Virus record (IMG/VR): IMGVR_UViG_3300043822_000021
Coordinates: 4,641 to 68,640 of that record
Strand: one strand, 5' to 3'
Length of the DNA stretch: 64,000 nucleotides
From: a virus
Lineage: Duplodnaviria > Caudoviricetes
In this document: in pieces, positions 916 through 19,187 of the stretch
Numbering within the stretch: the stretch's first letter is position 1
How the letters are laid out: the number at the start of each line of letters is the position of its first letter
The notes under the pieces: model-generated
The model's input: only the letters and a program-made list of their open reading frames with translations
Told to the model about the DNA's origin: nothing
Database searches by the model: none
Position numbers and translations under genes: made by a program

Positions 916-924
916 TTAACCTCC

Positions 925-1305: not shown

Positions 1306-1457
1306 TAGCCCTCCTTCAATATGTATAATTGTTCGAATATTTTTTTCGGCATTACCGTGATTTCCCCGGTATCTTTATCTTTGATAGAATAATCTCCATT
1401 ATCATTCACGGTAGCTTGAACTTCATACGGTTTCTGTACATAAGTTTTAAATTTCAT
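1305..1457 (-). CDS. Small hypothetical protein (50 aa, MKFKTYVQKPYEVQA...)
   Basis: Manual translation. AGGAGG RBS, fills the gap between two tail genes, and its stop overlaps the next start. Confidence 0.5.
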   Translation of the reverse strand: MKFKTYVQKPYEVQATVNDNGDYSIKDKDTGEITVMPKKIFEQLYILKEG

Positions 1458-1465
1458 ATGCCCTC

Positions 1466-3733: not shown

Positions 3734-3742
3734 TCAAACCTC

Positions 3743-4201
3743 CTAGATTAAATTAATAATAGCCTGTGCAAAGTCAGATTCCGTCTGCATATCAAACCCA
3801 TGGTTACTCATAGCCAGAATAATCATTATCTGTGTAGCCAAATCCAACAACCCCCAATTGGTAATTGGCAGTTCGCTATTCTCGTCTTTGATAAGAGGAA
3901 ATTTACGAAAATATCGGAGCGTCTTCGGCAATTTACCATAACATTCCAATTTACCATTACGGACTACAACGGGGGCCTGATTCGTAAACTGATAAAAGTC
4001 AGCAGGTACATCAGTCTGTTCGGCTGTTAGTGTGATATCCCCGATTACTTCGTGGTATTTCTGCTGAATCAGTACGTGCCAGATAAAATCCATGGCATCA
4101 TTCAGGTATGCTACAAGTTCAGCAGTATCATATCCAGTTTCTAGGCTGTCACTGAGCCGCTCCTTGACCGCCGCCTGACTGAGAAGTTCCTTCACTGTCA
4201 C
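3743..4201 (-). CDS. Head-tail adaptor-like protein (paralog 3)
   Basis: N-terminal helix, then ELVAYLNDAMDFI, then a DVPADF motif shared with the two neighbours; lies between capsid and tail genes. Confidence 0.55.
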   Translation of the reverse strand: MTVKELLSQAAVKERLSDSLETGYDTAELVAYLNDAMDFIWHVLIQQKYHEVIGDITLTAEQTDVPADFYQFTNQAPVVVRNGKLECYGKLPKTLRYFRKFPLIKDENSELPITNWGLLDLATQIMIILAMSNHGFDMQTESDFAQAIINLI

Positions 4202-4628
4202 TTGAACCGCCTCCTTTTATTTCTTTAATTGTCATCCGCATCAACCTGTTACAATGTGTGCCTGTACGAAAGGGGATTATATCCGTAAGACTGGTAACGT
4301 GTGGCTTATATGCGAAATATTTAAGAGTGGAGTTTTCGCCGTCCCATTCGCTATCAATAGGGGAAATTGTCGTTACGTTATTTTCATCCGTATTGTACAG
4401 AAGAGCAAATTGCCCCTGCCAAGCAATAAAGTCATCTGGTAGGGGAATACCGTTGGCAGTCAGCGCCACCGTCTTCAATAGCTCCGGATCGTAACTGTTG
4501 GCCATATCTATACAAATATCATCTATTGCATCGTTAAGACAGTGAATAAGTTCTTCATCGGAGAATGTTACTTTCTGCATATCCCCCAATCTCTGCCTAA
4601 CCAGAACCAGCATTTCATTTACTGTCAT
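4149..4628 (-). CDS. Head-tail adaptor-like protein (paralog 2)
   Basis: VRQRLGD...FSDEELIHCLNDAIDDI...PLPDDF motif of podovirus adaptor proteins. Confidence 0.6.
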   Translation of the reverse strand: MTVNEMLVLVRQRLGDMQKVTFSDEELIHCLNDAIDDICIDMANSYDPELLKTVALTANGIPLPDDFIAWQGQFALLYNTDENNVTTISPIDSEWDGENSTLKYFAYKPHVTSLTDIIPFRTGTHCNRLMRMTIKEIKGGGSSDSEGTSQSGGGQGAAQ

Positions 4629-4642
4629 CTATTCCACCACCT

Positions 4643-5182
4643 TTAGCACCAGAATTCCATGGGACGTTCGATAACAGGATAATTGGATGACTGGGCTATA
4701 TTTTCTATTTCTTCCGAAATAAGACTATCCAGCCCGCCTTTGCCGATAGAGCCATCGAGTAGGCCCGTAGCATACCGGATAAACAACTGCAAAAATATTG
4801 CCGGTAAATCAATCTCATCTTCCATGGAAGTAACGGAATCAATAATGAAGTAATAATCCATCTTACTGGCTGTATCATCTATATATAAGGTGTTTTTAAC
4901 AATTCGGAAATCACCTGTGTATTCTAAATTTTCCTGCCCATCTTTAGTGGCATACATGCGTTTCATTTTTATAAAGTCGTTTGGCAATGTCGCTTTGCCG
5001 TTTTTTACTTTTAGCGATGTCTCTTTTACTATCCAGTTCGATTCACGATTAATCAGAAGCATATTGACTACACGTAATACTGCATTAATCGCTTCTAATA
5101 ATTCCGGGTCTGAATGTTTTCTTGCGTACATCTCACCCAGATTGAACAGGACAGCAGTAGCTATTTCCTGTACTCTAATCAT
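4643..5182 (-). CDS. Head-tail adaptor-like protein (paralog 1)
   Basis: HSDPELLEAINAVLRVV...TLPNDFIKM motif; immediately downstream of the capsid cluster. Confidence 0.6.
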   Translation of the reverse strand: MIRVQEIATAVLFNLGEMYARKHSDPELLEAINAVLRVVNMLLINRESNWIVKETSLKVKNGKATLPNDFIKMKRMYATKDGQENLEYTGDFRIVKNTLYIDDTASKMDYYFIIDSVTSMEDEIDLPAIFLQLFIRYATGLLDGSIGKGGLDSLISEEIENIAQSSNYPVIERPMEFWC

Positions 5183-5517
5183 TCACTGACTCCTTTGCGT
5201 GCCCCCGGAGTATAACACCGGAATTCTGGATTCTTCCAGAGCCATTTATCCATCCATTTCTTAGCTTCTACGTCATCTTTCCCCCGGAGATTGGAATACA
5301 TCTTCAATTCGTAATCAGTAAGGAATCGTGCTCTGGGAATACGTGCCAGACGTTTGGCTTTCCCACCTTCTATATTTTCAGAGCCGGGATTCATACGATC
5401 CAGATAACATGCCTTCATTACCTGATATTCGTCCCATGTATGAGTTATTCTGAATTCTCCGGTTTTCTCGTCTATTTCTACATCGCTATGCATAATAGCC
5501 ATATATTCCACCCCCAA
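5179..5517 (-). CDS. Hypothetical virion-associated protein
   Basis: 112-aa ORF following the major capsid gene, ending in the W...NPEFR motif common after SU10-type capsid genes. Confidence 0.6.
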   Translation of the reverse strand: MGVEYMAIMHSDVEIDEKTGEFRITHTWDEYQVMKACYLDRMNPGSENIEGGKAKRLARIPRARFLTDYELKMYSNLRGKDDVEAKKWMDKWLWKNPEFRCYTPGARKGVSE

Positions 5518-5520
5518 GAT

Positions 5521-5552
5521 AAAAAAAATAAGGGGCTGTGCGAGACAGCCCC
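5521..5552 (-). terminator. Intrinsic terminator after the major capsid gene
   Basis: GGGGCTGT/ACAGCCCC stem followed on the minus strand by a T-run. Confidence 0.75.
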
Positions 5553-5559
5553 AAATAAG

Positions 5560-6732
5560 TTAGCCAGTGATTCCTTTGATACGGCCAGAAGCGATAGGTG
5601 CAGTACATTCCAGAGTAGCGGCACCGGTGATGACCTTCTGACGATAACTACCAGTACGGGGCGGATTTTCCGTATGGAACGGAATGAGATAACCTAATTT
5701 CCAATACTGATATTCAAAGAAGTCTACTACGTCATCAGTATACATACGATGAGCGTTAACATCGACACGACCGAAGTCCGTTTCCAGTACGTCAACAACT
5801 TCGACCAATTCTTTATCAGCCATCGGACGAGTCTTGGTAACACCCTGAGTCATGCCGGAAATAGCTCGTTTATTCTTGCCAGAGCAAACGATAGAATCAA
5901 CGGAACCGCCACGCTTCCAGACACACTGGAGCAGGTCGTTAATCTTATCGAATGTCAGCTTACCTGCATCAGCAGTATAGGCACCTGCATCAATAACGTT
6001 CTGGTTCGTAATGAACATAGTGCTTGCGCCGACGGAAGTGCTAGGCTTAATTACAGTCTTAGCACGAGCGGTGTCGTCCATCATAGTCTGCTGAGGAGTA
6101 GCATGAAGTTCGAAAGTATCTCCGGTCAGAACATGTGCATAATACGGTGTATTTGCTTTAAAGTTCTTGTCCAGTGTACCGGACAGGATTACCGGGTCGC
6201 CGTCGAACAGTTCGTGGTCAGTTACCGTGAATACACCGGCAGTAGTAACACTCGCTACAGGCTTAGTCTGGCTCAGGAAGTACGCTACGCCACCGAAACG
6301 GGCAGGAACACCAGAGGATTCCGGTTTTGCCTCTGCGTTGTTAACAATAGCGTATTCAAGGTCACGAGCAGTTTCCTTACCGCACTTAACAAACTGATAA
6401 GAAAGTTCGTCACGGACACCGTATTTCTTGATAGCCTGAGTGGTATCAGATACAGAGTAACCGTTTTCGAAGTTCTGTACATAGTTTGCAGAGCGAGTAC
6501 GAGGACGGGCCTTTTCAGCACCGAAGTCACGTACTTCGACCTGAGCATTGTCACGGGCAGGACGAAGGTTATCGTTCAGCCATTCATGCTTTGTATTAGT
6601 TACCGTAGTACGGCCAAATTTATTAGTTAAAAAAGTTTCATCGGGGTCAAGAGATGTAATGAAATCAGTGACATCCTGTACGCTACCTACAACCTCGCCA
6701 CTTCGGGTGGCGACGGATTTAAATTCTGCCAT
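5560..6732 (-). CDS. Major capsid protein, SU10/DUF5309 type, with an inserted domain
   Basis: DFITSLDPDETF...KHEWLNDNL, NYVQNF...VSDT, ELSYQ...KETARDLEYA, TDFG and E(A/C)TLE motifs of the HK97-fold SU10 family; follows the scaffold gene. Confidence 0.9.
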   Translation of the reverse strand: MAEFKSVATRSGEVVGSVQDVTDFITSLDPDETFLTNKFGRTTVTNTKHEWLNDNLRPARDNAQVEVRDFGAEKARPRTRSANYVQNFENGYSVSDTTQAIKKYGVRDELSYQFVKCGKETARDLEYAIVNNAEAKPESSGVPARFGGVAYFLSQTKPVASVTTAGVFTVTDHELFDGDPVILSGTLDKNFKANTPYYAHVLTGDTFELHATPQQTMMDDTARAKTVIKPSTSVGASTMFITNQNVIDAGAYTADAGKLTFDKINDLLQCVWKRGGSVDSIVCSGKNKRAISGMTQGVTKTRPMADKELVEVVDVLETDFGRVDVNAHRMYTDDVVDFFEYQYWKLGYLIPFHTENPPRTGSYRQKVITGAATLECTAPIASGRIKGITG

Positions 6733-6745
6733 TCGTTCAACTCCT

Positions 6746-7810
6746 TTATGCTAAATGGAACTTGGAGGCAATCTGTGCCTGCTGTTCCAAAGTCAACCTT
6801 CCTAATTTAGAATAATTCAGAGACGGTTTAACCTCTTTTTCTTCCCGCTTTACGCCAGTCGATTCCACATAAGGCGGTTTCGGTTTCTGGGTAACGGGAT
6901 TACTCTGCTGAGGAACTGCCTGTCTGGAGATTTCGTTTGCCGGGACGTAACCACGACTGCGGTAATACAAATCACGGCAATCTGCCATATAGGCATCAAT
7001 AGTCTTCGTATCATAATCTCGTAATGCCTGTTCAATTTTCAGGGCTTCACGATGCGGCAACTGCTGTAATCTCTGCGAAGCGAACTCGTCGATTTCCTTG
7101 ATGTTCTTGTCCTGTGCATACTTATCATATACGGCTTTAAAGTTGCGTTGAGCAACGTTACGTTCGTATACTGCCGCTTTGATAGTAGCAACTTCGTCGG
7201 CAAGGGCAACCTGATGCACTGGATTGTACTCATCGTATTCCGTGCCCAGACGTTTTTCGACGTTGCGTTTTGCATAGTCAGCTAACTGCTGATAATACGA
7301 AGCGGTGTTCTGCTGTTCCTGCTCTGGCGTAGGCTGTGCAGGTTGTCCCTGAGGGTAGGGGTTCTGCTGTGCCTGTGCATTATACTGCGGAGGCTGAGTC
7401 TGACTGAGCTGTCTGCGCTGGTCGGCTAATTCCTGTGTTTTTCTTGTGTAGTCCGCCTGCCGCATGTATCCCTTCTGTAATTCGTCCAGAGTTACCTGCT
7501 GTTGAACACCATCGACTGTGACTGTGTATGTCTGCGGCTGTGCCTGAGACTGAGACGTTTGTTCTTCCGGAGTTTCAGTCGGCTGTACGGGCTCGTCCTC
7601 TTCTTCGGGAGAGTACATCATCATGTCATCGAATGCGTGGTCATCAAAGATAACGTTGCCATCCGCATCAATTTTCATATCATAGTCGTCATTTGAACCA
7701 CTGGAGTCCTCTACGGGTTGTTCCGTGGGTTCTGTATTATTAGGCTCTGGCATATTGCCATCACCGAATAATTGAAAATCAAATTTAAACCCTTTCTTTT
7801 CTTCTTCCAT
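6746..7810 (-). CDS. Capsid scaffolding protein
   Basis: Acidic, Q/P-rich N-terminus with FDFQLFGD and the VTLDELQKGYMRQADYTRKTQELA scaffold signature; directly upstream of the MCP. Confidence 0.8.
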   Translation of the reverse strand: MEEEKKGFKFDFQLFGDGNMPEPNNTEPTEQPVEDSSGSNDDYDMKIDADGNVIFDDHAFDDMMMYSPEEEDEPVQPTETPEEQTSQSQAQPQTYTVTVDGVQQQVTLDELQKGYMRQADYTRKTQELADQRRQLSQTQPPQYNAQAQQNPYPQGQPAQPTPEQEQQNTASYYQQLADYAKRNVEKRLGTEYDEYNPVHQVALADEVATIKAAVYERNVAQRNFKAVYDKYAQDKNIKEIDEFASQRLQQLPHREALKIEQALRDYDTKTIDAYMADCRDLYYRSRGYVPANEISRQAVPQQSNPVTQKPKPPYVESTGVKREEKEVKPSLNYSKLGRLTLEQQAQIASKFHLA

Positions 7811-7872
7811 GTATTTCCTCCTTCACTCCCTGCAATCAGGGTTGGTGAATATTACCTAGCATATTTAATTTC

Positions 7873-8853
7873 TTATAGTGGGCCTCCACCCATATTGTAA
7901 TAATCAGGATAATCAACGGCGGGTGCTTCAGCGCCTACGCCGGGGACTCCATATTTATTTACTAGTGGCACCGGGTTTGGATACAAAGTATCTGCTGATA
8001 TATAAGGAGTATTAAATTCATATGTACCTTCATCAGAACCATCGCCGCCGTAATCACCGGTGTCACTAGAATCATCATATGAATCTGACTGGGAAGCGGC
8101 TAACTGCTGTGCAAGTGCCGCCTGTCTGGCCTGTTCTGCATGATATGCAGTCCAATCACGAGATGCCTGTGTCGGTTCCCACGCCCCGGTATTAGTAAGA
8201 GCCTGAGCCGCCTGCCAGTTAAAGTTCCTGCCCATGTAGTCTTTAATCATGGCTTCATCCCAGTCCGGGTGAATCTGTTTAAGTCTGGCGACGTTCCACT
8301 GCAGAGCTAACTCCGGGTTTGCATTAGGGTTCATCATAGAACTACCATCGCCCAAATCCGTGGTCTGTCTCTGAATAGCCGGATTAATATACGGGGTAAG
8401 CTGTGCTTCCGGGCGGTTATGGAGAATCTTATACACATTCTGGTACACATTCAGTCCAGAACCGCTTGTGGCATCCTTATTCTGTGCTTCAGACAAACCT
8501 TTATAGTAATTATCCAGATCACTCTGATTATATACTGTAGGATTGCTATACTGATACTTCGGTACAAATCCAGTATCCTGTGCCCCGAAACTAGGGTTCT
8601 GCGGCATATACCCCTGACGAGCCTTCTGGATGTACGGATTATTCAGCTCCTTACTCTGCTGTTCTGCATCAGAAATAACCTGCGGAGGGGCAGAATTTGC
8701 AGGGGCCTGAGCTTTAGCCTCATTCATTCCATCCTGATACTGTTGCCAGTAATTGCCATTAGTCTGGCTGAACGGGACATTCTGGCCATTATTCTGGGGC
8801 TGATTATCCCCGCTATACTTACTCTTGTAAGTAATATTTGTTTTCTTTGACAT
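7873..8853 (-). CDS. Q/N-rich hypothetical (possible internal virion protein)
   Basis: 326-aa low-complexity ORF between portal and scaffold; shares motifs with 8886-9698. Confidence 0.6.
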   Translation of the reverse strand: MSKKTNITYKSKYSGDNQPQNNGQNVPFSQTNGNYWQQYQDGMNEAKAQAPANSAPPQVISDAEQQSKELNNPYIQKARQGYMPQNPSFGAQDTGFVPKYQYSNPTVYNQSDLDNYYKGLSEAQNKDATSGSGLNVYQNVYKILHNRPEAQLTPYINPAIQRQTTDLGDGSSMMNPNANPELALQWNVARLKQIHPDWDEAMIKDYMGRNFNWQAAQALTNTGAWEPTQASRDWTAYHAEQARQAALAQQLAASQSDSYDDSSDTGDYGGDGSDEGTYEFNTPYISADTLYPNPVPLVNKYGVPGVGAEAPAVDYPDYYNMGGGPL

Positions 8854-8885
8854 TCATTACCTCCAATATTAATTGTTGCCTGTGG

Positions 8886-9698
8886 CTAAGACCGGCTCCC
8901 AATATATGCACCATTACGATCAAACCAATCAGGATGGTCTGCACGTGCCAAGTCGTACTCGTACTGAGCCAAGGCATTCGGGTCATTCTGATATTTGAGT
9001 CGCTGAACCTCACGTGGATGGAGCGCCGCATCAAAATTAAGTGCATCATCAAGGCTGTCGAACGTCGCCACGCCATTATCACCGACTTCGTAGTAACGTT
9101 TCTGTGCTTCATCACCAGAAAGTATCTGACCGTCAGGTGTAACGTTCATAATAACATGGTGGCCGTCACCATCAGAAAACACCTGTGAAACCATCGTACT
9201 TGTCGTGCCGTCGCCGTTATGAACGAATGGGCGATGATAGATATTACCAGAGCCCCAACGCCCATTTTTGATAGGGAGAGGATACAGAACATCACGTTCT
9301 TTCATTTGGTCAGGGGACATGGAGATAGCCCTCTTAATCATTTCATTCGGATTCTGTAACTGCTGGCCACCACTTAAATCCTGAGTCTGGCGTTGCATAG
9401 CAATGTTAGGCACGTATTGTTTAAGCTGAGTGTCTGGGCGTTCACCGTTCAAAATTTTATAAATACGTTCTTTGAAGCCGGGGTTAAGTGAACTATCGAA
9501 CTGATTGTTCAAAGCTTGCTTCACTACAGCCTGACCAACAGGGACAGCAGTTATAGAATCGTTCTGACTATTACTGGTCGTGGTCTTTTTCGCCGACGTT
9601 GCATTAGCAGGGTAAGTGGTCATGGTGTCTTGCGGGGAATACGTCGGGTTATATGCAATATGACCGTCAGTAAATTGAATTCGATTAGCTTTCGCCAT
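8886..9698 (-). CDS. Hypothetical (possible internal virion protein), paralog of 7873-8853
   Basis: 270 aa; shares YKIL..RP..QL..Y....QRQT.DL and HPDW motifs with its neighbour. Confidence 0.6.
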   Translation of the reverse strand: MAKANRIQFTDGHIAYNPTYSPQDTMTTYPANATSAKKTTTSNSQNDSITAVPVGQAVVKQALNNQFDSSLNPGFKERIYKILNGERPDTQLKQYVPNIAMQRQTQDLSGGQQLQNPNEMIKRAISMSPDQMKERDVLYPLPIKNGRWGSGNIYHRPFVHNGDGTTSTMVSQVFSDGDGHHVIMNVTPDGQILSGDEAQKRYYEVGDNGVATFDSLDDALNFDAALHPREVQRLKYQNDPNALAQYEYDLARADHPDWFDRNGAYIGSRS

Positions 9699-9709
9699 TC
9701 ATTACCCCC

Positions 9710-10021
9710 TTAGTAATTATCGAACCAGTTCTTATCTGGTTCTTTTGGCTTCAATAATTCCTTTAAATCCTTTTCGGCAATCTCGCCGTTATATATGAGC
9801 CTATCTAAGAACGTTTTAAAAGCCTCCGATGCCACCAGCTGATTCCGGAGGGCCATTACCACGCTCTCTGGGCACGTTTTGAGGGTTTCGATTATCGCCC
9901 CTTGATAATCCTCCAACCACTCCTGAGTTATTTGTTTGACCAATTCCGCCTGTTGGGCTTTGTCCATATCCTCTATCAGCCGGGACTGCTGTTCTAATTC
10001 CGCTTTGTCCATCAAATCCAC
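9710..10021 (-). CDS. Small helical protein downstream of the portal, overprinted on the portal 3' end
   Basis: GTG/ATG start with a GGAG(TAGG) RBS inside the portal ORF; natural helical composition. Confidence 0.65.
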   Translation of the reverse strand: MDLMDKAELEQQSRLIEDMDKAQQAELVKQITQEWLEDYQGAIIETLKTCPESVVMALRNQLVASEAFKTFLDRLIYNGEIAEKDLKELLKPKEPDKNWFDNY

Positions 10022-11972
10022 CTACTCCCATCTGACTTTGTGCGTTCATCGAGCCACCGAATAGTGCCTGTAATTCAGGAGGCAACTGCATCAATACTTC
10101 TGCCGGTAATGTGCCAGTCTGTAAATAATACTGCATGGCTTCCGGAGGAAGTGCCGCCAATACCTGCTGGCGCAGGGACATTTCCATAATCATTCTCTGC
10201 TGTATTACGTCTGGCTCTGTAATGTAGTCCGCATAATTCTTGAATCCTGCAGATTCTATCCACTTTTTGAACAAGTTATAGACGTTCTGGGGAGTAGCAA
10301 TCTGCATACCAGCACTAAGAGTCTGCATAATAGCTGTCAGTATGCTCTGTAACTGCATCTGTGTTGATTCTTTAGTGGCTATACTGATACCAGCATTAAC
10401 AACCAAATCGAAATTGCCTTGTAAGTCATCCGGGCTTATGTGTAATTCCTTATTTGTAAGGCGGATTACTGTTTCTTGGTCTATAAACTGCTGATTCAGA
10501 CCAATCATGAACCGGAACAGTTCGTACATGCCGGTTTCAGCAAACATGCGAGCAATCAATTCCAAACGCTGAGACGACTGTCCGAGGATAGCCGATATAC
10601 CAGTCGCCGTTTTGTTTAACGAGTTAGCGTCTAACCCTTGGTTATACCGGGTGATGCCAGTACGGTTTTCTTTCTGCCCTTCTATATATTCGAGAAACTG
10701 GTACGTATATGGATTCAGCTGATTGACCGGCATAGCCATAGCCACATCCTGCATTGGATGGTTGGCTTTCTTCCGGATGACCGCTCTACCCTGTACATAA
10801 TCGTCTATATTGATAGCATCTTCCGCCAGAATCATTTTAGGGTCATTGGTAAGAGCTATATTGTGTACGATCTGGCGGGTGAGAGCGACTTTCAAGTCCT
10901 GTAATTCACCAATCAATTCAGCGTAAGAACGTTTTACCCAGATACGATGAGGGTCTTTCGTAGGACTGATGGAGAAGAACGGATGTCTGCCCATATAGTT
11001 TGGTTCTACACGGAGAATGGTATCATCACATATAGTGATAATCATATCTTCCAGTACACCATCATTATTCCAGTCTAATTTGGTGTAACATTCATAAATT
11101 GTTACCACGTCACGGGCGTCATCTACGTTGTTATCGAATTTATTGTAATGGTCTCCGATAACATCTTCTACTTCGTCGTCATATTCTAAAGATTCGCTGT
11201 GTTTAGGATGAATCTGGTCTACATTGGCATAAACTCCCTGATTTTCCCGTTCACGCAGGTAACTCATAGTGACTTTTTTCTTGTGAGCAACGAAATTGGC
11301 CTCTTCCAGAGACTTTGCATCTGAGCTGTACAACAATTCAGACACTAAGATATTCTCGATTTTAGGAGAATTCTTCACATAATACGGGGAAATATAGGTA
11401 ACTTCCATGATTCCGTATTCATCCGGAGGTGTAACTTCCAAAATCTGGACATTCTGCTGTTGCAATTCCTGAAAAGCACGGATATTCATATGCTGTTTTA
11501 ATGTCTGTTCTGCTTCCTTTCTATCCCAATAGCATTTAATAATACCCATGCCAGTAATAAGAGCGTCTTTAAACCAGTTATAAAGGATAGGAAATATGCG
11601 GTTCTGACGCTGTAACTGGTACGTAAGCAATTCCTGCATTACTTCAGCATTTTTATCATCCTCTTCAGATACCCCCTGAACAGTGATAATTTCATCACCG
11701 CCAGTAAATACCTTGATGAGAGACGGAAGTGCCCATTCAATCGTATCTGTTACGTCCGTGCTGACAAGAGAACTGAATTTAGACAGCCGTGGGAACTTAT
11801 TCTTGTAATAATCCTTATCGGCATAGTAAATTTCGTACCGTTCTTTGACAGTTGGGAGTATGACAGACTGCTGATAGTCTTCTGCGTCGCTGATATCATG
11901 CTGAATAGCTGTGACAAGACTCTTGTCGATATCATCAATCGTCGGATCGGTCTTGTTATTAACGAAACTCAA
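9816..11972 (-). CDS. Portal protein (SU10/P22-like)
   Basis: 718 aa. DTIEWALPSLIKVFTGG, WFKDALITGMGIIKCYW, YMGRHPF and ENRTGITRYNQGLD motifs typical of podovirus portals. Confidence 0.92.
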   Translation of the reverse strand: MSFVNNKTDPTIDDIDKSLVTAIQHDISDAEDYQQSVILPTVKERYEIYYADKDYYKNKFPRLSKFSSLVSTDVTDTIEWALPSLIKVFTGGDEIITVQGVSEEDDKNAEVMQELLTYQLQRQNRIFPILYNWFKDALITGMGIIKCYWDRKEAEQTLKQHMNIRAFQELQQQNVQILEVTPPDEYGIMEVTYISPYYVKNSPKIENILVSELLYSSDAKSLEEANFVAHKKKVTMSYLRERENQGVYANVDQIHPKHSESLEYDDEVEDVIGDHYNKFDNNVDDARDVVTIYECYTKLDWNNDGVLEDMIITICDDTILRVEPNYMGRHPFFSISPTKDPHRIWVKRSYAELIGELQDLKVALTRQIVHNIALTNDPKMILAEDAINIDDYVQGRAVIRKKANHPMQDVAMAMPVNQLNPYTYQFLEYIEGQKENRTGITRYNQGLDANSLNKTATGISAILGQSSQRLELIARMFAETGMYELFRFMIGLNQQFIDQETVIRLTNKELHISPDDLQGNFDLVVNAGISIATKESTQMQLQSILTAIMQTLSAGMQIATPQNVYNLFKKWIESAGFKNYADYITEPDVIQQRMIMEMSLRQQVLAALPPEAMQYYLQTGTLPAEVLMQLPPELQALFGGSMNAQSQMGVGGFDGQSGIRTAVPADRGYGQSPTGGIGQTNNSGVVGGLSRGDNRNPQNVPRERGNGPPESAGGIGGF

Positions 11973-11983
11973 TGCATCACCTC

Positions 11984-12268
11984 CTACAACTGTCTATTTA
12001 CAATTGTTTCCGGGGAGAATGCCGAAGACATAATGACCCCAGTATCAAAAACAATAATCGAACGTTTCTTTCTACCCCTCGTAGCATCAAATAATTCTCC
12101 AGAATGGAGCTTGCTTGTGTATAATCTCTGCACAGAATTACCAGCATACGGGAGAATGGACGTTACCCGGTTCATATTTACAATGAAACCAAATCCGACA
12201 TTAAGAAACGGGCCGTTCTTATTGTTATCCGTCTTAACCAAATCACGGTTCAACATGTTTGTTTCCAT
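11984..12268 (-). CDS. remA: RemA / DUF370-family DNA-binding regulator
   Basis: FLNVGFGFIVNMNRV..I.P...DATRGRKKRSIIVFDTGVIMSSAFSPETIVNR aligns by eye with Firmicute RemA (LINIGFGNIV..NRI...DAT.GRRTR.VII.D...ILSA.QPET...R). The start was placed at the ATG after an AGGTGA RBS. Confidence 0.82.
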   Translation of the reverse strand: METNMLNRDLVKTDNNKNGPFLNVGFGFIVNMNRVTSILPYAGNSVQRLYTSKLHSGELFDATRGRKKRSIIVFDTGVIMSSAFSPETIVNRQL

Positions 12269-12277
12269 AGCTATCAC

Positions 12278-12463
12278 CTAACAGTAAAAAATTGGTGCTC
12301 CAATACGTGAAGGAGGAACCGGGGGGTTTCCGCCCTTATCGAGTTTGGAGTTCAGTGTTAAATTTGCTAATTCTTTCTCCAGCATGTCTACTCTTTTACT
12401 CAGATGCCAGATATCTTTGGACATTTCTTTAATCTTTTGTTCGTTTATAATAGCTTCCTTCAT
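12278..12463 (-). CDS. Small coiled-coil hypothetical protein
   Basis: MKEAIINEQ... with a GGGG RBS. The longer track start overlaps tRNA-Trp and is not used. Confidence 0.55.
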   Translation of the reverse strand: MKEAIINEQKIKEMSKDIWHLSKRVDMLEKELANLTLNSKLDKGGNPPVPPSRIGAPIFYC

Positions 12464-12488
12464 GTGTATTCCCCTTTCGTTATAAATA

Positions 12489-12562
12489 TGGCAAGCCCGT
12501 GAGGAATCGAACCTCAATCTACGGTTTTGGAGACCGTTATTCTACCGTTGAACTAAAGGCTT
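12489..12562 (-). tRNA. tRNA-Trp (CCA)
   Basis: Cloverleaf with ACGGT-CTCCAAA-ACCGT anticodon arm, GGTTCGATTCC T-arm and encoded 3' CCA; one acceptor-stem mismatch. Confidence 0.92.
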
Positions 12563-12565
12563 ATG

Positions 12566-12657
12566 TGGCGGAAAGGATGGGATTAGAACCCATGCGAGCC
12601 TCGTAAGCTCCTAACGCTTTAGCAAAGCGTCCTCTTAAACCACTTGAGTACCTTTCC
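12566..12657 (-). tRNA. tRNA-Ser (GCT)
   Basis: GGAAAGG/CCTTTCC acceptor stem, ACGCT-TTGCTAA-AGCGT anticodon arm, long variable arm and GCCA end. Confidence 0.92.
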
Positions 12658-13450
12658 GTGTTGCAGGGTTGTTTAACGCCGCCCTGCCCGCCGTATAGGA
12701 TAAAACGGTTAAACAATCCTATATCCTTCTCAGGAGAGGTTTTGACCTATGCTCCAAGTAGGCCCTTTACTGTACATCCTTGGGTACAGAACCAGTTATC
12801 TCCCTGTTTTCTTTTACATCTGACCATGGGAAACAGATGGTGGAGCTATTTTGCTAAATTAGTCGAAATCAAGCACACCAACGTGAAGGTTTTAGCATTG
12901 TGCTCTTGCGGGGGAAAGATTCGAACTTCCGTAACTGGGGAATGAGCCCAGTGTCCTCCCATTAGACGACCCCGCCATGCATCGGTTCTTTTCTCTCTTC
13001 GTGGAGCATCGCGCTTCAAGAACCGGAAAGCGGTTTCCCTCGCAAGGGATGTACATCAAGAACCAGCGTCGATATCTGGCCAGTATATCCACACCGTAGG
13101 ACGATGTACGTAGTCCTTCCTAGTACGGCCATGAATCCTTACACATGCCTTCGTATACCAGTCCCCGTAGAGATTCTGGTATAGGTGCAGGGGTGTCACA
13201 GTCGTACCGTCTTGGTTGTAAAAATAAGCGGCGTATAAATACGCCACATCCAAAACTCTCCAAGAAGTTTTCAAGTGCATTCGTTAAAGAAGCCCACTTA
13301 GGCTACTGACCAACACCCAAAGCGTGTTGCAGTCTTTTTACCTAGTCTTTCCAACATTCACAGGCTAACGCCCAGTGCCTATGTTCCGGAGTTTAACGTC
13401 CTCCTGAACGACGAGATATGGATGTTTAAGGGCCTCCCGGCCCTCACCCC
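12658..13450 (-). ncRNA. Large ornate structured ncRNA, GOLLD-like, with embedded tRNA
   Basis: About 795 nt with no credible ORF, packed with hairpins: GGGCC/GGCCC, CAACAC/GTGTTG, GGCGTA/TACGCC, TATACCA/TGGTATA, TCCCT/AGGGA, AACCG/CGGTT, CATCTG/CAGATG, CTGTAC/GTACAG, TAGGAT/ATCCTA, GCAGGG/CCCTGC. The layout is ~470 nt, then tRNA-Met, then ~250 nt. Boundaries are approximate. Confidence 0.6.
12906..12976 (-). tRNA. tRNA-Met (CAT), initiator-like, atypical
   Basis: GGCGGGG/CCCCGCA acceptor with a 1-72 mismatch, CTGGG-CTCATTC-CCCAG anticodon arm with three G-C pairs, GTTCGAATC T-loop; no encoded CCA. Confidence 0.8.
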
Positions 13451-13452
13451 CT

Positions 13453-13839
13453 TTACTGTCTCCGATCAAGAGCAACAAGGGTTCTGGCCAAGCGGTCAAC
13501 GGCCTGTTCCCATAAAGTATATTCCAACGACTCATGGTTTTCGGGTTGGAATGGAGCGAAGATAATATGTAACATTTCGTGCACAAGTACTTCTTCTTCG
13601 TCCATATCGTTTACACACCCCGTGTAATATACAGGGTTGAGTATGCGTATATAACAAGTTTCCGTGGGAAGTGTAATCATAGATTCGCCATCTCTATTCT
13701 GTTCACTCATTGCTTCAGGAGGAACCAGAAAAGCTTGGATTGTCCAAGATTCTTCATGCAGGATTTTCTGCCATTTTCCAACCAGTTTTTCAAGTTCCTT
13801 ATTACACTTGTCCACATCGGTGTAATCCTTATGGGCCAT
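13453..13839 (-). CDS. Small zincin-like (HExxH) protein
   Basis: EEVLVHEMLHI motif; start placed at the ATG with an upstream purine-rich RBS. Confidence 0.6.
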   Translation of the reverse strand: MAHKDYTDVDKCNKELEKLVGKWQKILHEESWTIQAFLVPPEAMSEQNRDGESMITLPTETCYIRILNPVYYTGCVNDMDEEEVLVHEMLHIIFAPFQPENHESLEYTLWEQAVDRLARTLVALDRRQ

Positions 13840-13908
13840 CGAACCACTCACTTTCTGTGTTTTTTTTACATGGCTCCGGTGACAAAGTTATTTGTCTCGG
13901 TGAGCCAT

Positions 13909-15363
13909 TTACATGGCTCCGGCATACGGTATCTCGTCGGTAGTGACTTTTTCATAAGCCGCAACTGGAGCAAAGCTTACTTGGTCTTGATAAGCCAATG
14001 CATCTATCAAATCGTCGTGTAATGATTTGGGAAATGCTAAAAACTCTCCTTCCAGTTCACCTAAGAATGAAGCCCCCATGGGGAACCAGACCGTACCAGC
14101 CTTGAACCTTGGCTGTATTGCCTGTATCCGCATCTCTTTCTTTTCTTTGGCTTCCAAATCCTTTACCGTGAACCAGATGTTGCGTATTGGCATTTCCTTT
14201 TCTACGAAATGACTTAGTGCCGCCTGATAGGCTACTTTTTCCATACCGACATATATCGGGTGATACCGTGTTACCGCTTCGAAGATGGTGTCAATCGTCT
14301 TACTCGGATTCCATCTCCCGTAAGCCACGTCTAAAACAAACCAGTGATTATCTGAATTGACTCCGACTGTACATACCACTGTGTAGTCGGCTGTTTCTTT
14401 TTCAGAGATAGCCAAATCTACGGTAGTGAATATGTTCATGTCTTTGGTATCCAGCTCCTCTGGTTTGTAATATTTGAAGTATTCTTTCCTGAATAACTGG
14501 GTTTCCGGGGAAATAGCTATACACATTTTTTCCCGTTCCCATACATCTAATTTGCCGATGCGTCTGAAGGCTTCCCGTTCTGCCTTTATCTCTTCCTTGC
14601 TCCATCTTTCAGGCCATACGCTGTTACCTTCTGCATCCAAGATGGGTATCCGCACACCAGCAAACTTTAAGTCTTTCTGATTTTCAATGACTCGTTCTAT
14701 CAGACATTTTTCTCCCAGATTATTCCCTATCATGAATATCCGTGTGTTTTTCCCCAAGAACAGTACATCAGACAGGAACCATTCCCAGTCACCTTCCTGA
14801 ACTGTATCTGACTTGGCATCTTCCAAGTCCTGCGGGTCATCTATCAGTACAATAGAAGGTCTGGTATCATGTGAGTTCAAACCACGGATGGCCGCCCCTT
14901 TACCATAGGCTTCAAACCGTACCCACATCTCCTGCCCGTTCTCGTCTTTGAGTATGACTTCAAATCCGTTCTGTGACTGTTCCACTATCCGGATCAGATT
15001 CATCGACAACAGTTCATTGTTCAGCCACTCTTCTTCAATTTCTTTCAGCCTCTTATTGGCCGCTCTCTGGGTGGCCATGATAAAAACAATGTACTGTCTG
15101 TCTTTACTTGGATATGTCAGGCAATGCATCGGGAATGCCCTTAAAACTACGCCCGATTTCCCACTTTCACGGAACCCTTCTACTGCGTAGTGATGCTTGC
15201 CATGTAGCAATATCTGCCCCCACTCTTCTTGGAATGACGGCGTTGCTACTTCCTTGTCTACCGGGAGGAAGATCCTTCGGAACTTCATCAGGTCATCTTT
15301 ACATTCACGGAACATCTGAGCCATTAATACCCTAGGGTCTATATCAGCCATATACCTATTCAC
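13909..15363 (-). CDS. terL: Terminase large subunit
   Basis: Walker A FRESGKS, Walker B VLIDDPQD, RNase H-like nuclease DLAISEKETAD and HDDLIDALAY. Confidence 0.95.
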   Translation of the reverse strand: MNRYMADIDPRVLMAQMFRECKDDLMKFRRIFLPVDKEVATPSFQEEWGQILLHGKHHYAVEGFRESGKSGVVLRAFPMHCLTYPSKDRQYIVFIMATQRAANKRLKEIEEEWLNNELLSMNLIRIVEQSQNGFEVILKDENGQEMWVRFEAYGKGAAIRGLNSHDTRPSIVLIDDPQDLEDAKSDTVQEGDWEWFLSDVLFLGKNTRIFMIGNNLGEKCLIERVIENQKDLKFAGVRIPILDAEGNSVWPERWSKEEIKAEREAFRRIGKLDVWEREKMCIAISPETQLFRKEYFKYYKPEELDTKDMNIFTTVDLAISEKETADYTVVCTVGVNSDNHWFVLDVAYGRWNPSKTIDTIFEAVTRYHPIYVGMEKVAYQAALSHFVEKEMPIRNIWFTVKDLEAKEKKEMRIQAIQPRFKAGTVWFPMGASFLGELEGEFLAFPKSLHDDLIDALAYQDQVSFAPVAAYEKVTTDEIPYAGAM

Positions 15364-15805
15364 CCCTATCTATACCCGTTCCTACTATATTCGTCTAAAT
15401 CTCACCCTTTGTTTCTACTATATGGACAAATTGTCGAAATACCCTACGGAAATTTCCAAAAATTTTTTGAATTACCCATTTTACGATATAGTACTACCCA
15501 TTATATTTAGTATTTTTATTCGTAATTTAGAGTATAATCCCGGTATTGTATGATACTTTTATACAAAAACATAGAATAAATCTATCAAATAGGTAGAAAA
15601 ATCGACATATAAGAGAGACATAACTTCCCTATTTCGCCCGCCGGGGTGGCAAGGAGTCCCAAATGCGAAGCCCCACCCCCATGGGCCGTTTTTTGTGAGC
15701 CGACTAATATCAATTTGTCGTTAGTATAAATGGTAAGTCAAATAAAGAGTTGACAATAGCCTATAAATGGCTTAACCATGCGGTTCAAGCACTTGTCTAT
15801 AGGTG

Positions 15806-15814
15806 TGTTATGAT
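15806..15814 (+). promoter_or_regulatory. Extended -10 promoter (TGnTATGAT) for the rightward early operon
   Basis: TG-T-TATGAT lies just before a GAGA-capped hairpin and a boxA-like ACCTTGACAAC; no good -35 at 17 bp. Confidence 0.45.
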
Positions 15815-15819
15815 GTAGC

Positions 15820-16075
15820 TGTCCTCGAGAGAGGGCAGGAACCTTGACAACAGAACAACGGCTATGGCGTGAGTGCCTAGGCTACGGCTAAAAGTACTCA
15901 TAAAGTGAAGTTGTTCTATACCGGCGACGGTATCATATCGGTTTCAAGTGCAGGCTTCACAACTTGCAAGCGACAGCTTCCTGCATAAATAGCAGGCCTG
16001 TAAAGTACCTTGTGTGAGCGGACAATAGTCTAGGCTACGGCTGAAGACGACAAAACAGGCTACGGCTTGTGATAG
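15820..16075 (+). ncRNA. Structured leader RNA of the early operon
   Basis: CTGTCCTC-GAGA-GAGGGCAG, AGAACAAC/GTTGTTCT, ATACCG-GCGA-CGGTAT, CCTGC/GCAGG, and three AGGCTACGGCT (cUACGg tetraloop) units; no ORF. Confidence 0.5.
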
Positions 16076-16278
16076 CGGTTCTCATTCCTTTTGATTACTA
16101 GCTACGTTCATCAAAACCCCTAACAAGGTAAACAAGGTATTTCCATAACTGTCTGAGAGTGGGCAGTAAAGGGACGCAAAAAGGAAAGTCCTGTTTGTCA
16201 CCTATGGTATAGGGATAGATATATTCATGGGTAGACATTAGACTTCCGACGAGTAAGTAATAGGATTTTCCCCGCAAC

Positions 16279-16322
16279 GCTGTTTTGGGCGCGGACAGAT
16301 TAAAAGTAGCGCGCCTACCATA
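16279..16322 (+). ncRNA. H-type pseudoknot motif, copy 1
   Basis: GCTGTT-T-TGGGCGCG-GACAGA-TTAAAAGTAG-CGCGCCTA-CCATA. Confidence 0.75.
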
Positions 16323-16355
16323 AGCAAGACAAAAAATACAAAAGGGGGTCATATT

Positions 16356-16874
16356 ATGACTATGACTTTAACAAAAACGGCCTTTAAGGCCGACATGAAA
16401 ACATGGGGTATTCAGCTTAATACCCTTAAAGACGCCCGTTTACAGGCGACTTCTGAAAAGGAACTTAAAGAAGCCCGTGAGCTTACAATTAAGCAGGCGG
16501 TTATCACGGAAACCGCAATATTTTTAGGTGCTTGCTTTGGCTACAATGCGCCGGACGTTCTGTCATATTTTGACCATGGTGTAATGCCGGTCAATGGTCA
16601 ATGGGACGACAAAAAATTTGCCAATAAGTTAAAAGATTTGTTGGCTAAGGCGTGTAAGAGCGCCTATTACAAAACTTCCCTTGATAAGCTTCAGAAGAAA
16701 CATTCTGCTTCTGAAGCGGAAAAAGTTTATGAAATTCAGATGCGTACACTACATCTGATTCATGATGTCATGGGTATTCCGTTCCCCGTACACGCTGTTA
16801 TGCAGGAAGTTGCCTGCAGGCGTGTTAAGGCCGTCCGTAATATTAAGCAGAATGGCCACTTATTCGTTAGATAG
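16356..16874 (+). CDS. Early hypothetical protein
   Basis: 172-aa ORF with an AGGGGG RBS; first gene of the rightward block. Confidence 0.75.
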   Translation: MTMTLTKTAFKADMKTWGIQLNTLKDARLQATSEKELKEARELTIKQAVITETAIFLGACFGYNAPDVLSYFDHGVMPVNGQWDDKKFANKLKDLLAKACKSAYYKTSLDKLQKKHSASEAEKVYEIQMRTLHLIHDVMGIPFPVHAVMQEVACRRVKAVRNIKQNGHLFVR

Positions 16875-16939
16875 GTCGAAACTAGGCATTTGCCTAGTCT
16901 ATAGGGATTGGCTTCCCCTATACTGATGAGACAGGCCAA
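16875..16939 (+). ncRNA. Type II hammerhead ribozyme
   Basis: GTC-GAAA-CTAGGC(ATTT)GCCTAG-TC-TATAGGG(loop)CCCTATA-CTGATGA-GAC. The full catalytic core and GUC site (cleavage after 16899) are present. The stem I loop TTGGCTT can pair with the 3' AGGCCAA as a pseudoknot. Confidence 0.9.
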
Positions 16940-16996
16940 ACTGGAACGTAGACAATTTTCCCCGTTTGCGTTCCTTTTTTGTTGGGAGGAATGTAC

Positions 16997-17149
16997 ATGA
17001 AAAACAATATTGTCGTGTTTGATACGGAGTCTGAAGCACGTAAAGCGTGTGAATGGCTCAATAGTTTTATGGACGAACAGGAAACGGGCGTCCATTTTCA
17101 GGTTGTCGAAAAAGACGGCAAATATATCATTGCCGTTAGTTGTTTCTAA
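16997..17149 (+). CDS. Small early protein (50 aa, MKNNIVVFDTESEAR...)
   Basis: Manual translation; GGGAGG RBS. Confidence 0.6.
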   Translation: MKNNIVVFDTESEARKACEWLNSFMDEQETGVHFQVVEKDGKYIIAVSCF

Positions 17150-17155
17150 GTGTAT

Positions 17156-17199
17156 TGTGCTTTAGTCATGGGCACGTTAAAAGTAGCATGACTGCCATA
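17156..17199 (+). ncRNA. H-type pseudoknot motif, copy 2
   Basis: TGTGCT-T-TAGTCATG-GGCACG-TTAAAAGTAG-CATGACTG-CCATA, followed by a GCTATAGC hairpin and T-run. Confidence 0.8.
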
Positions 17200-17253
17200 T
17201 TGCTATAGCTCACTTGCTATAGCTATTTTTATTATTTGGAAAGGCGGGATTTT

Positions 17254-17484
17254 ATGTATTATGTTACTATGACCGACTCTTTTATGAGCGGTTGGGGAAT
17301 GGCAAAAAACAGGATTAATAAGTTTGTCGTCGCTTGTGAGAACTATTCACAGGCTGAAGAAATTGTTAAAAAGGCACACAAAAGGAGCGAAATGAAATAT
17401 GTTCGCATTGCGAGAAAAATGCCGTATTATTCTCCAAATCGGTACATAACAAGTTGGAGAAAATACAGGGAAATTCACTGGTAA
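17254..17484 (+). CDS. Conserved small phage early protein
   Basis: TDSFMSGWGMAKNRINKFVVAC...RSEMKYV, a pattern recalled from other phage early genes. Confidence 0.7.
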   Translation: MYYVTMTDSFMSGWGMAKNRINKFVVACENYSQAEEIVKKAHKRSEMKYVRIARKMPYYSPNRYITSWRKYREIHW

Positions 17485-17503
17485 TAAGGTTGAGTTTCCC
17501 TTA

Positions 17504-17537
17504 TGTGCTACGGTGTCACACTAAACCACCGTCCATA
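17504..17537 (+). ncRNA. H-type pseudoknot motif, short variant (copy 4)
   Basis: TGTG-CT-ACGGTG-T-CACA-CTAAAC-CACCGT-CCATA, followed by a CCTATC/GATAGG hairpin and T-run. Confidence 0.55.
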
Positions 17538-17591
17538 CTGCCTATCTTATAACTGGATAGGTTATTTTTGTTTTTGAAAGGTGGAATTTAC

Positions 17592-17792
17592 ATGAAAAAA
17601 GAAGAAATGCTGAATGAACTCATCTATGGAGTTGCTTATTGGATGGCGAAAATGATAATCGCCAAATCAGAGGATGAAAAAAAGTTTTTCTCTAAAGTTA
17701 TGCATGAGGAAGAAAAAAATGTTGCCGATATTATTGGCGATATAGCCCTTGAAAGGGCTATGAAATATGTAGAGGACGGTGATGTGAAGTAG
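17592..17792 (+). CDS. Small early hypothetical protein
   Basis: MKKEEMLNELIYG... with an AAGGTGG RBS. Confidence 0.6.
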   Translation: MKKEEMLNELIYGVAYWMAKMIIAKSEDEKKFFSKVMHEEEKNVADIIGDIALERAMKYVEDGDVK

Positions 17793-17800
17793 TTTAAGTA

Positions 17801-17844
17801 TGTCGTTTGGTTGTGGCGACGTTAAAAGTAGCACAACCACCATA
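17801..17844 (+). ncRNA. H-type pseudoknot motif, copy 3
   Basis: TGTCGT-T-TGGTTGTG-GCGACG-TTAAAAGTAG-CACAACCA-CCATA, followed by an AGGCACT/AGTGCCT hairpin and T-run. Confidence 0.8.
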
Positions 17845-17897
17845 CTAGGCACTTTATGTGAGTGCCTGTTTTTAATTGTCTATAGGAGGAATATACC

Positions 17898-19187
17898 ATG
17901 ACATTTAAACCTGTTACAAACGAAGAATTGAAGGAAAATTTCAACTTTAACAAATTGAGCTGTATTTTAGCTGAATATAATTTCAGCGTTATCAAGGACG
18001 AAGAAGGCAAAATATACTTCAGTGAAGACGGAATTAATCCAGCCATTTGTCCTGAATGTGGCGAATATATTCAGGCAACAGACGATAAATGGGCCTTAGA
18101 AAAATTCGGTACAGACGTATATCACTATGAATGTGGCGATTTCTGTTCGGATTGCGATGAATGGTTTCCCAATAGTTATCTTACAGATGTAGGCAACAGC
18201 ACATTCATTTGTGATGATTGTTTCTCTGATAACTGGGAAATATGCCATTCATGCGATGAATATTTTCGCCGTGAAGATGGGTATGAGGGAGACGATGGTG
18301 AGTGGTATTGTGAATGTTGTGCACAGGATTACTATGTGTGCGACAATTGCGGCAGATTACTTGTGGAATGTGACTTAGTAGATGAAGACGGCGACCATTA
18401 TTGCCGCCAATGCCGTGATGACGGTTATGGCAATTGGGAAACAGAAGCTTTATCGGATTACCATTGCGGACGTAAAAACGTATTTATTTCCACTGGCAGT
18501 ACACATAATTCCCCGTATCAGGGAAATTCATATATTGGTATTGAGATGGAGTTCGAGTACTTAGAAACTGCACTTGCAGAGGCATTACCTGAACAATTTA
18601 AAGCTGAAGAGGACGGCTCAGTCCGTTGTGGATATGAGCTTATTTCTGATGCTATGACGTTTAACTATTGGAAACAGGCCATTGATTTAGATGAGCTGAT
18701 TGAAGCCGTAAACCTCTATGGTGGTTGTGCTGGTACAAGTGCTGGTATTCACCTAAACATCAGCACTCACAACATGAGTGTAGAACAGAGAGCGGAAATT
18801 ATCCGCTTTGTATATGAAAACTGGGATTCCTTGATTAAGTTCGGACGTCGGCCCCTTTTAGAAGGGAATTATTACAAATGTCCGCCGGAATGTGATGACA
18901 ATATTTCTTTATTACGTAAGTGTGCGTACCATTGTTGTGGTACAAACACTTCTCATCGGAACCGCATGGAATTGCGGTTTTTCAATTCAAGTATTGATGC
19001 AGACCATATTTGGGCCATTCTTGAATTTGGGCACTGCATTATGGAAATTGTCAAGGCATGTGAAGCCTTGACATGGGATTCTATTATCGAGTACGCCGAA
19101 AAGGACGGTGATTGTGAACATCTGATTAATGAATATAGAAACAACTTTGAGTCTGAAGAACGTAATGAAATTATTTCTAATTGCTAA
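17898..19187 (+). CDS. Putative amidoligase (COOH-NH2 ligase) with N-terminal CxxC repeats
   Basis: YIGIEMEF, EEDGSVRCGYELIS, AGIHLNIS and RMELRFFNSS motifs; about 7 CxxC zinc-knuckle units upstream. Confidence 0.8.
   Translation: MTFKPVTNEELKENFNFNKLSCILAEYNFSVIKDEEGKIYFSEDGINPAICPECGEYIQATDDKWALEKFGTDVYHYECGDFCSDCDEWFPNSYLTDVGNSTFICDDCFSDNWEICHSCDEYFRREDGYEGDDGEWYCECCAQDYYVCDNCGRLLVECDLVDEDGDHYCRQCRDDGYGNWETEALSDYHCGRKNVFISTGSTHNSPYQGNSYIGIEMEFEYLETALAEALPEQFKAEEDGSVRCGYELISDAMTFNYWKQAIDLDELIEAVNLYGGCAGTSAGIHLNISTHNMSVEQRAEIIRFVYENWDSLIKFGRRPLLEGNYYKCPPECDDNISLLRKCAYHCCGTNTSHRNRMELRFFNSSIDADHIWAILEFGHCIMEIVKACEALTWDSIIEYAEKDGDCEHLINEYRNNFESEERNEIISNC

Follow-up and report, generated by a model that had tools for sequence, protein, structure and literature searches.

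The closest described counterparts of the locus treated here are the GOLLD and ROOL RNAs. GOLLD RNAs have a 3' region that is conserved universally and a 5' region that is conserved less, sometimes with a tRNA in the linker, and for one GOLLD that has been studied a tRNA-Met lies upstream of the RNA; by self-assembly the RNA is reported to form an RNA-only 14-mer cage. ROOL RNAs have intertwined 5' and 3' regions and multistem junctions, occur near tRNA islands of phages and prophages, and their function is unknown. Phages thus repeatedly put very large folded RNAs in tRNA islands, for reasons that are unknown. Here we describe a non-coding region of about 800 nucleotides (nt) around a tRNA-Met gene in a virus genome (IMG/VR record IMGVR_UViG_3300043822_000021; 68,640 bp, rated complete), of which a stretch of 64 kb, in the following called the window, was analysed and supplies all coordinates. 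The region is a genuine structured, strand-specific non-coding element with a nested tRNA-Met, and it is neither GOLLD nor ROOL nor one rigid 800-nt fold. We consider it a candidate for a new RNA family, rare and of low diversity, in a niche already known, and our leading, though tentative, interpretation is a lineage-restricted, unclassified structured RNA of accessory character that is co-transcribed with tRNAs and cut out by tRNA-processing enzymes.

A preliminary description had placed a GOLLD-like RNA at 12658-13450, with about 470 nt on one side of the tRNA-Met and about 250 nt on the other. These coordinates and this layout are right, but the element has to be read on the minus strand, like the flanking genes. 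It consists, together with the adjoining tRNA genes, of the following parts:

12978..13452, minus strand: 5' domain, 475 nt, non-coding and multi-helix, made of conserved core blocks and swappable hairpin modules.
12905..12977, minus strand: tRNA-Met(CAU), called tRNA-Met(cat) by ARAGORN and matched by the Rfam tRNA model RF00005 with 49.6 bits against a cut-off of 29 bits.
12842..12904, minus strand: segment A, a hairpin module of about 64 nt closed by GAGC/GCUC, between the discriminator base of tRNA-Met and the original CCA.
12658..12838, minus strand: segment B, the 181-nt tRNA-Ser(GCU) leader, in which about five hairpins lie, one of them long and built on UUGUUUAAC/GUUAAACAA.
12566-12657, minus strand: tRNA-Ser(GCU), found by ARAGORN and Rfam, CCA encoded.
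12489-12562, minus strand: tRNA-Trp(CCA), found by ARAGORN and Rfam, CCA encoded.

The proposal of a tRNA-Met nested in the element is borne out by ARAGORN and the Rfam model alike, and the gene is kept in all variants. Initial searches gave three relatives, L001, L004 and the fragment L024, and a look-up by the exact sequences of two neighbouring proteins, one RemA-like and one of 61 amino acids (aa), added 13 further loci. Together they represent ten distinct full-length variants (736-1083 nt) and the more distant L004.

Like GOLLD, the locus is a large non-coding phage RNA region of about 800 nt with many helices, a tRNA nested within it and further tRNAs adjoining. With ROOL it shares the occurrence in a phage near a tRNA island, a size of several hundred nt and multistem junctions. 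The niche originally recognised, a strand-specific, hairpin-rich non-coding phage RNA region around a tRNA-Met and near other tRNAs, as for GOLLD and ROOL, is therefore retained. The assignment to the GOLLD family has to be abandoned, since the covariance model (RF02032; 416 positions, gathering score 150 bits) matched nothing at E<=10 in the entire 68,640-bp genome and the conservation pattern is reversed. In GOLLD the 3' domain is conserved and the 5' domain variable, whereas here the 5' core is common to the variants and the 3' part is dispensable, the spacer between tRNA-Met and tRNA-Ser measuring 178 nt in L043, up to 387 nt in L039 and only 4 nt in L004, from which the 3' part is missing; a counterpart of the conserved GOLLD 3' domain was not found in it. 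Unlike GOLLD, the element is also confined to one narrow phage lineage. Nor is there a covariance-model match to ROOL (RF03087; 574 positions, gathering score 99.1 bits), which gave nothing in the region, its sole match in the genome (7.4 bits, E = 2.75) lying elsewhere and being at noise level. A search of the whole window with Rfam 15 at gathering score returned three tRNAs only, a cmscan with all families at E<=10 over 12300-13700 returned the three tRNAs and noise, and the longest variant, L039, likewise gave tRNAs and noise, and no GOLLD, at E<=10. A highly divergent GOLLD or ROOL, beyond reach of the Rfam models, would occupy the same niche (phage, tRNA-adjoining, a tRNA within the element) and have a similar size of about 800 nt, but with the permissive searches empty and the conservation reversed we regard this as the least probable of the explanations considered. 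The part of the earlier classification that survives is its caveat that the RNA could be a new class.

That the region has structure beyond chance expectation holds for the 5' domain, which folds on the tRNA strand with a minimum free energy (MFE) of -162.5 kcal/mol (z = -3.0 versus dinucleotide shuffles). The opposite strand reaches an MFE of -138.8 kcal/mol, so that the tRNA strand is more stable by 24 kcal/mol, and many G-U pairs can be formed on the minus strand only. At least ten hairpins had been reported for the whole region; well over ten were found. Three elements make up the conserved scaffold of the 5' domain: the hairpin block at its 5' end, two hairpins at about 13290-13340, and the junction block of 148 nt that adjoins the tRNA. 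Its individual features are:

13393..13452, minus strand: 5' terminal block, a GGGA-capped hairpin (GGGCC/GGCCC) within a longer stem, followed by a CGUC/GACG hairpin.
13342..13392, minus strand: swap module, a 51-nt hairpin cassette with two unrelated alleles, both of which are present in tandem in L004.
13311..13329, minus strand: best-supported hairpin (helix 7), found with three stems, CAACAC/GUGUUG, CAGUGC/GCACUG and CAGUAC/GUACUG, all of them pairing.
13218..13247, minus strand: hairpin resembling an intrinsic terminator in the middle of the 5' domain, 8 bp (5 G-C) and a 4-nt loop followed by the U-tract UUAUUUUU.
12978..13125, minus strand: core block of 148 nt, abutting the 5' end of tRNA-Met, with a three-way junction and a GGUUCUU/AAGAACC hairpin.

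The fold is supported by the way in which the variants differ. In an alignment of 11 sequences of the 5' part, with a consensus fold of 129 pairs, 96.2% of the cells are paired and 23 pairs have changed on both sides, as compared with 3-8 when the partners are slid by 1-3 columns; none of 500 column shuffles matched this. Three of the pairs in helix 7 have changed on both sides, with 100% of its cells paired, and the long-range helix GUACAUCG/UGAUGUAC within the 148-nt core, a block with a mean column identity of 94% (alignment A6), contains two pairs that changed compensatorily. In the 5' terminal block UUAAACAUCCAUAUCUCGUC is invariant (11/11 variants), and the first hairpin of L004 carries two compensatory pair changes, one from G-C to U-A and one from G-C to U-G. 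Insertions and deletions respect the fold as well, hairpin tips being deleted and hairpins being inserted at loops and junctions; the 148-nt core of L004 loses exactly one hairpin tip, and a self-pairing hairpin of 140 nt is inserted at a junction in L039.

The statement that the region lacks a credible open reading frame (ORF) was confirmed, as not a single gene is called in the 475 nt (12978-13452) and the 247 nt (12658-12904) on either side of tRNA-Met in any of 13 independent homologous contigs, which come from different samples. Of the sense ORFs the longest (72-74 aa, 13059-13280) stays open in the window, in L001 and in L024, and L004 has a different called gene of 47 aa at the equivalent place, which might be taken to indicate a small protein with only incidental RNA structure. 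We consider this very improbable. In relatives the start codon has changed from ATG to ATA, so that a TTG further on is the only one left, a Shine-Dalgarno sequence is lacking, and the substitutions, about 9 non-synonymous versus 4 synonymous, are near neutral; the ORF furthermore spans less than half of the 5' domain, encloses the terminator-like hairpin and is called as a gene in none of the 13 contigs. An antisense ORF of 95 aa is disrupted by an 8-nt indel in relatives, and neither of the two longest ORFs of the gap is matched in Pfam or PHROG.

The 247-nt spacer between tRNA-Met and tRNA-Ser is a second, looser set of modules. Segment A is deleted in L043 and swapped for an unrelated module of about 135 nt in L045, while L039 carries both modules, and the 3' part as a whole is truncated or partly replaced in L043 and L045. 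The central 70 nt of segment B exist in two haplotypes and its last ~65 nt are invariant; the segment is missing from L004 and occurs only together with tRNA-Ser(GCU). The long-range GCTCCA/TGGAGC pairing that was thought to close a multiway junction in the 3' part is not conserved, since TGGAGC belongs to a loop insertion of 8 nt that 5 of the 10 variants lack, and GCTCCA (GCUCCA), which is absent from L043, is actually the 3' edge of the segment A insertion of about 64 nt. A single RNA of about 800 nt with such a 3' junction is therefore not supported.

Two other pairings were considered and rejected. The loop-loop pairing of CUUUGG, in the loop of the covarying 5' hairpin, with CCAAGG in a 3' hairpin loop is found in the window only and is lost in other alleles, and was treated as chance; those pairings of GUUAAAC repeats with GUUUAAC or UUUAAC that can be assessed are lost in L004 without compensation. 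Just upstream of tRNA-Ser, at 12658-12725 on the minus strand, there is a near-perfect inverted repeat of 13 nt (AGGAUUGUUUAAC / GUUAAACAACCCU) from which either one long hairpin or two hairpins with loop-loop pairing can be formed; because the stretch is invariant in all variants, covariation favours neither form.

Taken as a whole the element is a mosaic: phages that are nearly identical differ in having, lacking or exchanging whole modules of about 50-140 nt. Such a picture might also arise if recombination scars, decayed tRNA genes or small mobile hairpins had accumulated in a hot spot for mobile DNA and no RNA function were under selection, the hairpins then being those of the inserted elements, and it is in line with this that the insertion site of segment A falls precisely at the boundary of tRNA-Met and its CCA and that other mobile insertions are found nearby (LAGLIDADG/Hom_end domains in the L004-type terminase gene terL, a 230-aa helix-turn-helix (HTH) gene and a 1059-aa portal protein). 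We nevertheless hold this to be quite improbable, as the compensatory substitutions in conserved helices indicate selection on pairing after insertion, and conservation is higher in the core blocks than in the coding DNA on either side. There are also no consistent pseudo-tRNAs according to ARAGORN, and the Rfam tRNA model at E<=10 finds only the three real genes. An origin of the spacers from decayed tRNAs was specifically rejected: at 85% stringency ARAGORN gives no extra candidate in the window and two extra calls in relatives, on the opposite strand and overlapping real tRNAs, and at 70% the pseudo-tRNA candidates are weak and inconsistent between alleles.

The degree of constraint can be estimated from the variation within the main lineage, where nucleotide diversity amounts to 0.03-0.07 in the RNA core and to 0.34 in the swap module (13342..13392). 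The core lies below the third codon positions of the flanking genes (0.06-0.11) and above their codon positions 1-2 (0.002-0.02) and the tRNAs (0-0.017). Between the window and L004 the core blocks are 83-86% identical, as compared with 77% for the flanking terL DNA and 71% for the portal DNA, and the 148-nt block reaches about 93% outside the deleted tip, counted over aligned columns in A6. To judge from these sequence comparisons, the pattern fits moderate selection acting mostly on pairing, and a recent exchange of a cassette comprising tRNA and leader could give the same picture.

It is tempting to arrange these observations into the following scheme, which leads to the accessory RNA proposed above. 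The Met-Ser-Trp cluster would have been inserted between the terL/HExxH genes and the portal module, and the element would reside in its transcribed spacers and be transcribed with the late operon. Such co-transcription is the simplest assumption because no sigma-70-type promoter is seen in the gap on the minus strand and the stretch immediately upstream of the RNA contains no sequence conserved in both lineages. A cut by RNase P at position +1 of tRNA-Met would generate the 3' end of the 5' domain, and a cut by RNase Z past the discriminator base of tRNA-Met, expected because no CCA follows this base, would together with RNase P at tRNA-Ser free the 247-nt piece; these RNase P and RNase Z steps follow from established tRNA processing. 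The excised and heavily paired 5' RNA might then persist as a stable species and could be a non-essential accessory RNA, filling the niche that GOLLD and ROOL fill in other phages. Transcription, the processing sites, the stability and any function of the RNA are what we infer from the genomic data.

Parallels to such a scheme exist. The tRNA cluster of phage T4 includes the stable species 1 and 2 (rnaC/rnaD) of about 120-140 nt, which are also non-tRNA stable RNAs that are co-transcribed with tRNAs, freed by tRNA-processing enzymes and dispensable; their sequences are unrelated to the present element, which is 3-6 times larger and modular. In bacteria, spacers of tRNA operons can be regulatory RNAs, for instance the 3' external transcribed spacer (3'ETS) of glyW-cysT-leuZ, which is a sponge for small RNAs, and in the case of MALAT1/mascRNA the release is directed by a tRNA-like structure. 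Common to the latter two cases is that cleavage by RNase P or RNase Z at a tRNA or tRNA-like structure sets the ends of the neighbouring functional RNA. The bacterial regulatory spacers are short and base-pair with known partners; between the present element and the rest of the window only short complementarity at chance level was observed, and no target was found.

The most serious alternative, although in our opinion somewhat unlikely, is that the structures contribute to the architecture of the transcript only and that none of the RNA has a function of its own. In that case the first ~235 nt would provide the terL-HExxH message with a structured 3' untranslated region (UTR) and an intrinsic terminator, shielding it from 3' exonucleases and setting the read-through into the structural genes, and the remainder would be long 5' leaders of tRNA-Met and tRNA-Ser that tune processing by RNase P and RNase Z. 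The canonical terminator-like hairpin with its U-tract (13247-13218) speaks for this, being retained in 10/10 main-lineage variants with wobble-compatible changes, but it is missing from L004, and the call is a pattern match for which the scan has a chance expectation of 1.6 +/- 1.4 such sites in the region. The hairpin may split the 5' part into a 3' UTR of terL-HExxH and a leader of tRNA-Met. The lack of a promoter-like site in the gap, the only moderate constraint seen in the diversity, and the association of the 148-nt block with tRNA-Met even in L004 and of segment B with tRNA-Ser(GCU) alone would all agree with a role in cis. Sister phages with 78-86% identical terminases, however, carry a single tRNA, the gap is short there (about 100-200 nt), and terL, tRNAs and portal are expressed without such structures. 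The tRNAs themselves appear to need no long spacers either, since those outside the element are only 3-4 nt long (3 nt from tRNA-Ser to tRNA-Trp in the window, and 4 nt from tRNA-Met to a tRNA-Ser(UGA) in L004), and hairpins acting as mere stabilisers do not require a core that is 83-86% identical to L004 next to flanking genes at 71-77%. On these three grounds, the sister phages, the short spacers and the better preservation of the core, an accessory RNA is preferred to operon punctuation and is placed ahead of it.

Several of our results nonetheless weigh against an accessory RNA. The claim of structure beyond chance does not extend to the 247-nt 3' part, where z = -1.46 on the tRNA strand is unremarkable and, with one pair changed on both sides, there is almost no covariation. 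The frequent gain and loss of modules could reflect weak constraint, and a working terminator would, if present, turn the 5' domain into two transcripts. As to the covariation, the consensus structure was inferred from the same alignment in which it was evaluated, the relatives are close (one lineage about 88-98% identical, and the distant L004), the independent events are few because the changes travel together as haplotypes, and one predicted pair (columns 468:494) is broken to C.A in two variants. Finally, the core covariance model R1 has no match in two complete sister phages, and the element must be regarded as accessory and dispensable because such phages exist without it.

A role at the level of DNA, such as a packaging site, was considered and appears unlikely in view of the strand-asymmetric pairing, the G-U pairs and the difference of 24 kcal/mol between the strands. 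In a relative with direct terminal repeats the ends are also at least 12 kb from terL, as reckoned from the locus coordinates.

The distribution of the element is narrow. Among the loci gathered, model R1, which was built on the 148-nt core, matches family members only. It has no match in four genomes or metagenome-assembled genomes (MAGs) with related terminases, nor in 121 genomes from the family of a Veillonella relative, the latter being a weak search with no positive control. No match to the element was found by blastn in 50,697 GenBank phage records, pattern scans of IMG/VR gave nothing beyond two contigs already known, and a scan of one metagenome turned up L024 as the one true relative, next to five 20-mer matches that were due to chance and had flanks of unrelated sequence. 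A search of species genomes for relatives returned distant terminase relatives only, all without the RNA. The terminase relatives come from Veillonella, Lachnospiraceae, Clostridia and a rumen Synergistaceae MAG, which together with the sample labels of the contigs suggests a gut or oral anaerobe as the host.

A bolder version of the accessory RNA would make the ~480-nt RNA upstream of tRNA-Met the founder of a class of large ornate RNAs in phage tRNA islands, the third and independent of the other two, released by tRNA-processing enzymes and acting in trans, which we think unlikely, if less so than an accumulation of insertion scars. By analogy with what is suspected for GOLLD and ROOL, the trans action might for example consist in self-assembly or in the binding of host factors or defence components, and the swappable hairpin modules would then be specificity or expansion segments. 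If true, a third unrelated RNA in this position would strengthen the idea that the niche itself, with co-transcription with tRNAs and ends made by RNase P and RNase Z, is what matters; if there is only 3' UTR and leader structure, the locus is an ordinary feature of a phage operon. In either case the natural whole-module variants and the complete sister phages free of the element provide a ready comparison set for tests of function.

The tRNA-Met deserves some comment. In the source genome no CCA is encoded directly past the discriminator base, while in L043, L045 and L004, all without segment A, the end of the tRNA reads ...GCAA-CCA. In the Rfam alignment it has three consecutive G-C pairs beside the anticodon loop and a non-Watson-Crick 1:72 pair, both of them initiator-like traits. 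The D-stem has a U11:A24-type pair, unlike the A11:U24 of initiators, and initiator, elongator and tRNA-Ile2 are all candidate identities.

Every gene in window positions 1-15363 is on the minus strand, and the order read on this strand is terL, the HExxH gene, the 475 nt, tRNA-Met(CAU), the 247 nt, tRNA-Ser, tRNA-Trp, the 61-aa ORF, the RemA-like gene and the portal gene. The protein-coding neighbours closest to the element are:

15363-13909, minus strand: terL, large terminase (PHROG 38, Terminase_6C).
13453..13839, minus strand: gene for an HExxH (HEMLH) protein of 128 aa, as judged from its translation, possibly a SprT-like phage protein.
12278..12463, minus strand: 61-aa ORF with a good ribosome-binding site, the first gene past the tRNAs, followed by the RemA-like and portal genes.

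The stop codon of the HExxH gene abuts base 1 of the conserved RNA. The gene is called at 128 aa in 10 homologous contigs and is present in every variant with the full element; it is missing from L004, where the RNA core remains. The protein has no match in Pfam, PHROG or the PDB, and in a protein atlas it groups by language-model features with small viral proteins of which some are labelled SprT-like, an observation that serves as a lead only. The 61-aa ORF is called as a gene in all homologous contigs. The portal is of the SU10 type and its upstream neighbour is the RemA-like gene.

Mobile insertions are concentrated in the neighbourhood of terL and portal, which is a hot spot for them. In L004 and L047 the terL, of the L004 type, encodes 812-818 aa with LAGLIDADG/Hom_end domains and has an intein-like appearance, L042 and L044 have an additional gene for a 230-aa HTH-like protein between terL and the HExxH gene, and the portal protein has 1059 aa in L042 and L043 as against 718 aa elsewhere. 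Elsewhere in the window, candidates for a type II hammerhead (16875-16939) and for a pair of group I introns in nrdD (28111-31691) were compared with Rfam, whose hammerhead and group I intron models have no match in 15700-17950 and 28000-31800, either at gathering score in the search of the whole window or at E<=1 locally; the sole weak Rfam match in these two stretches is Gut-1 at 17717-17795 (24 bits, E = 0.09). Two of the loci, L041 (ERZ773248 NODE_43, 159 kb) and L044 (ERZ27266704 k141_148822, 344 kb), have a near-identical phage region in contigs that far exceed 68.6 kb, which suggests an integrated or otherwise host-linked form, or misassembly, and the flanks of these long contigs could name the host.

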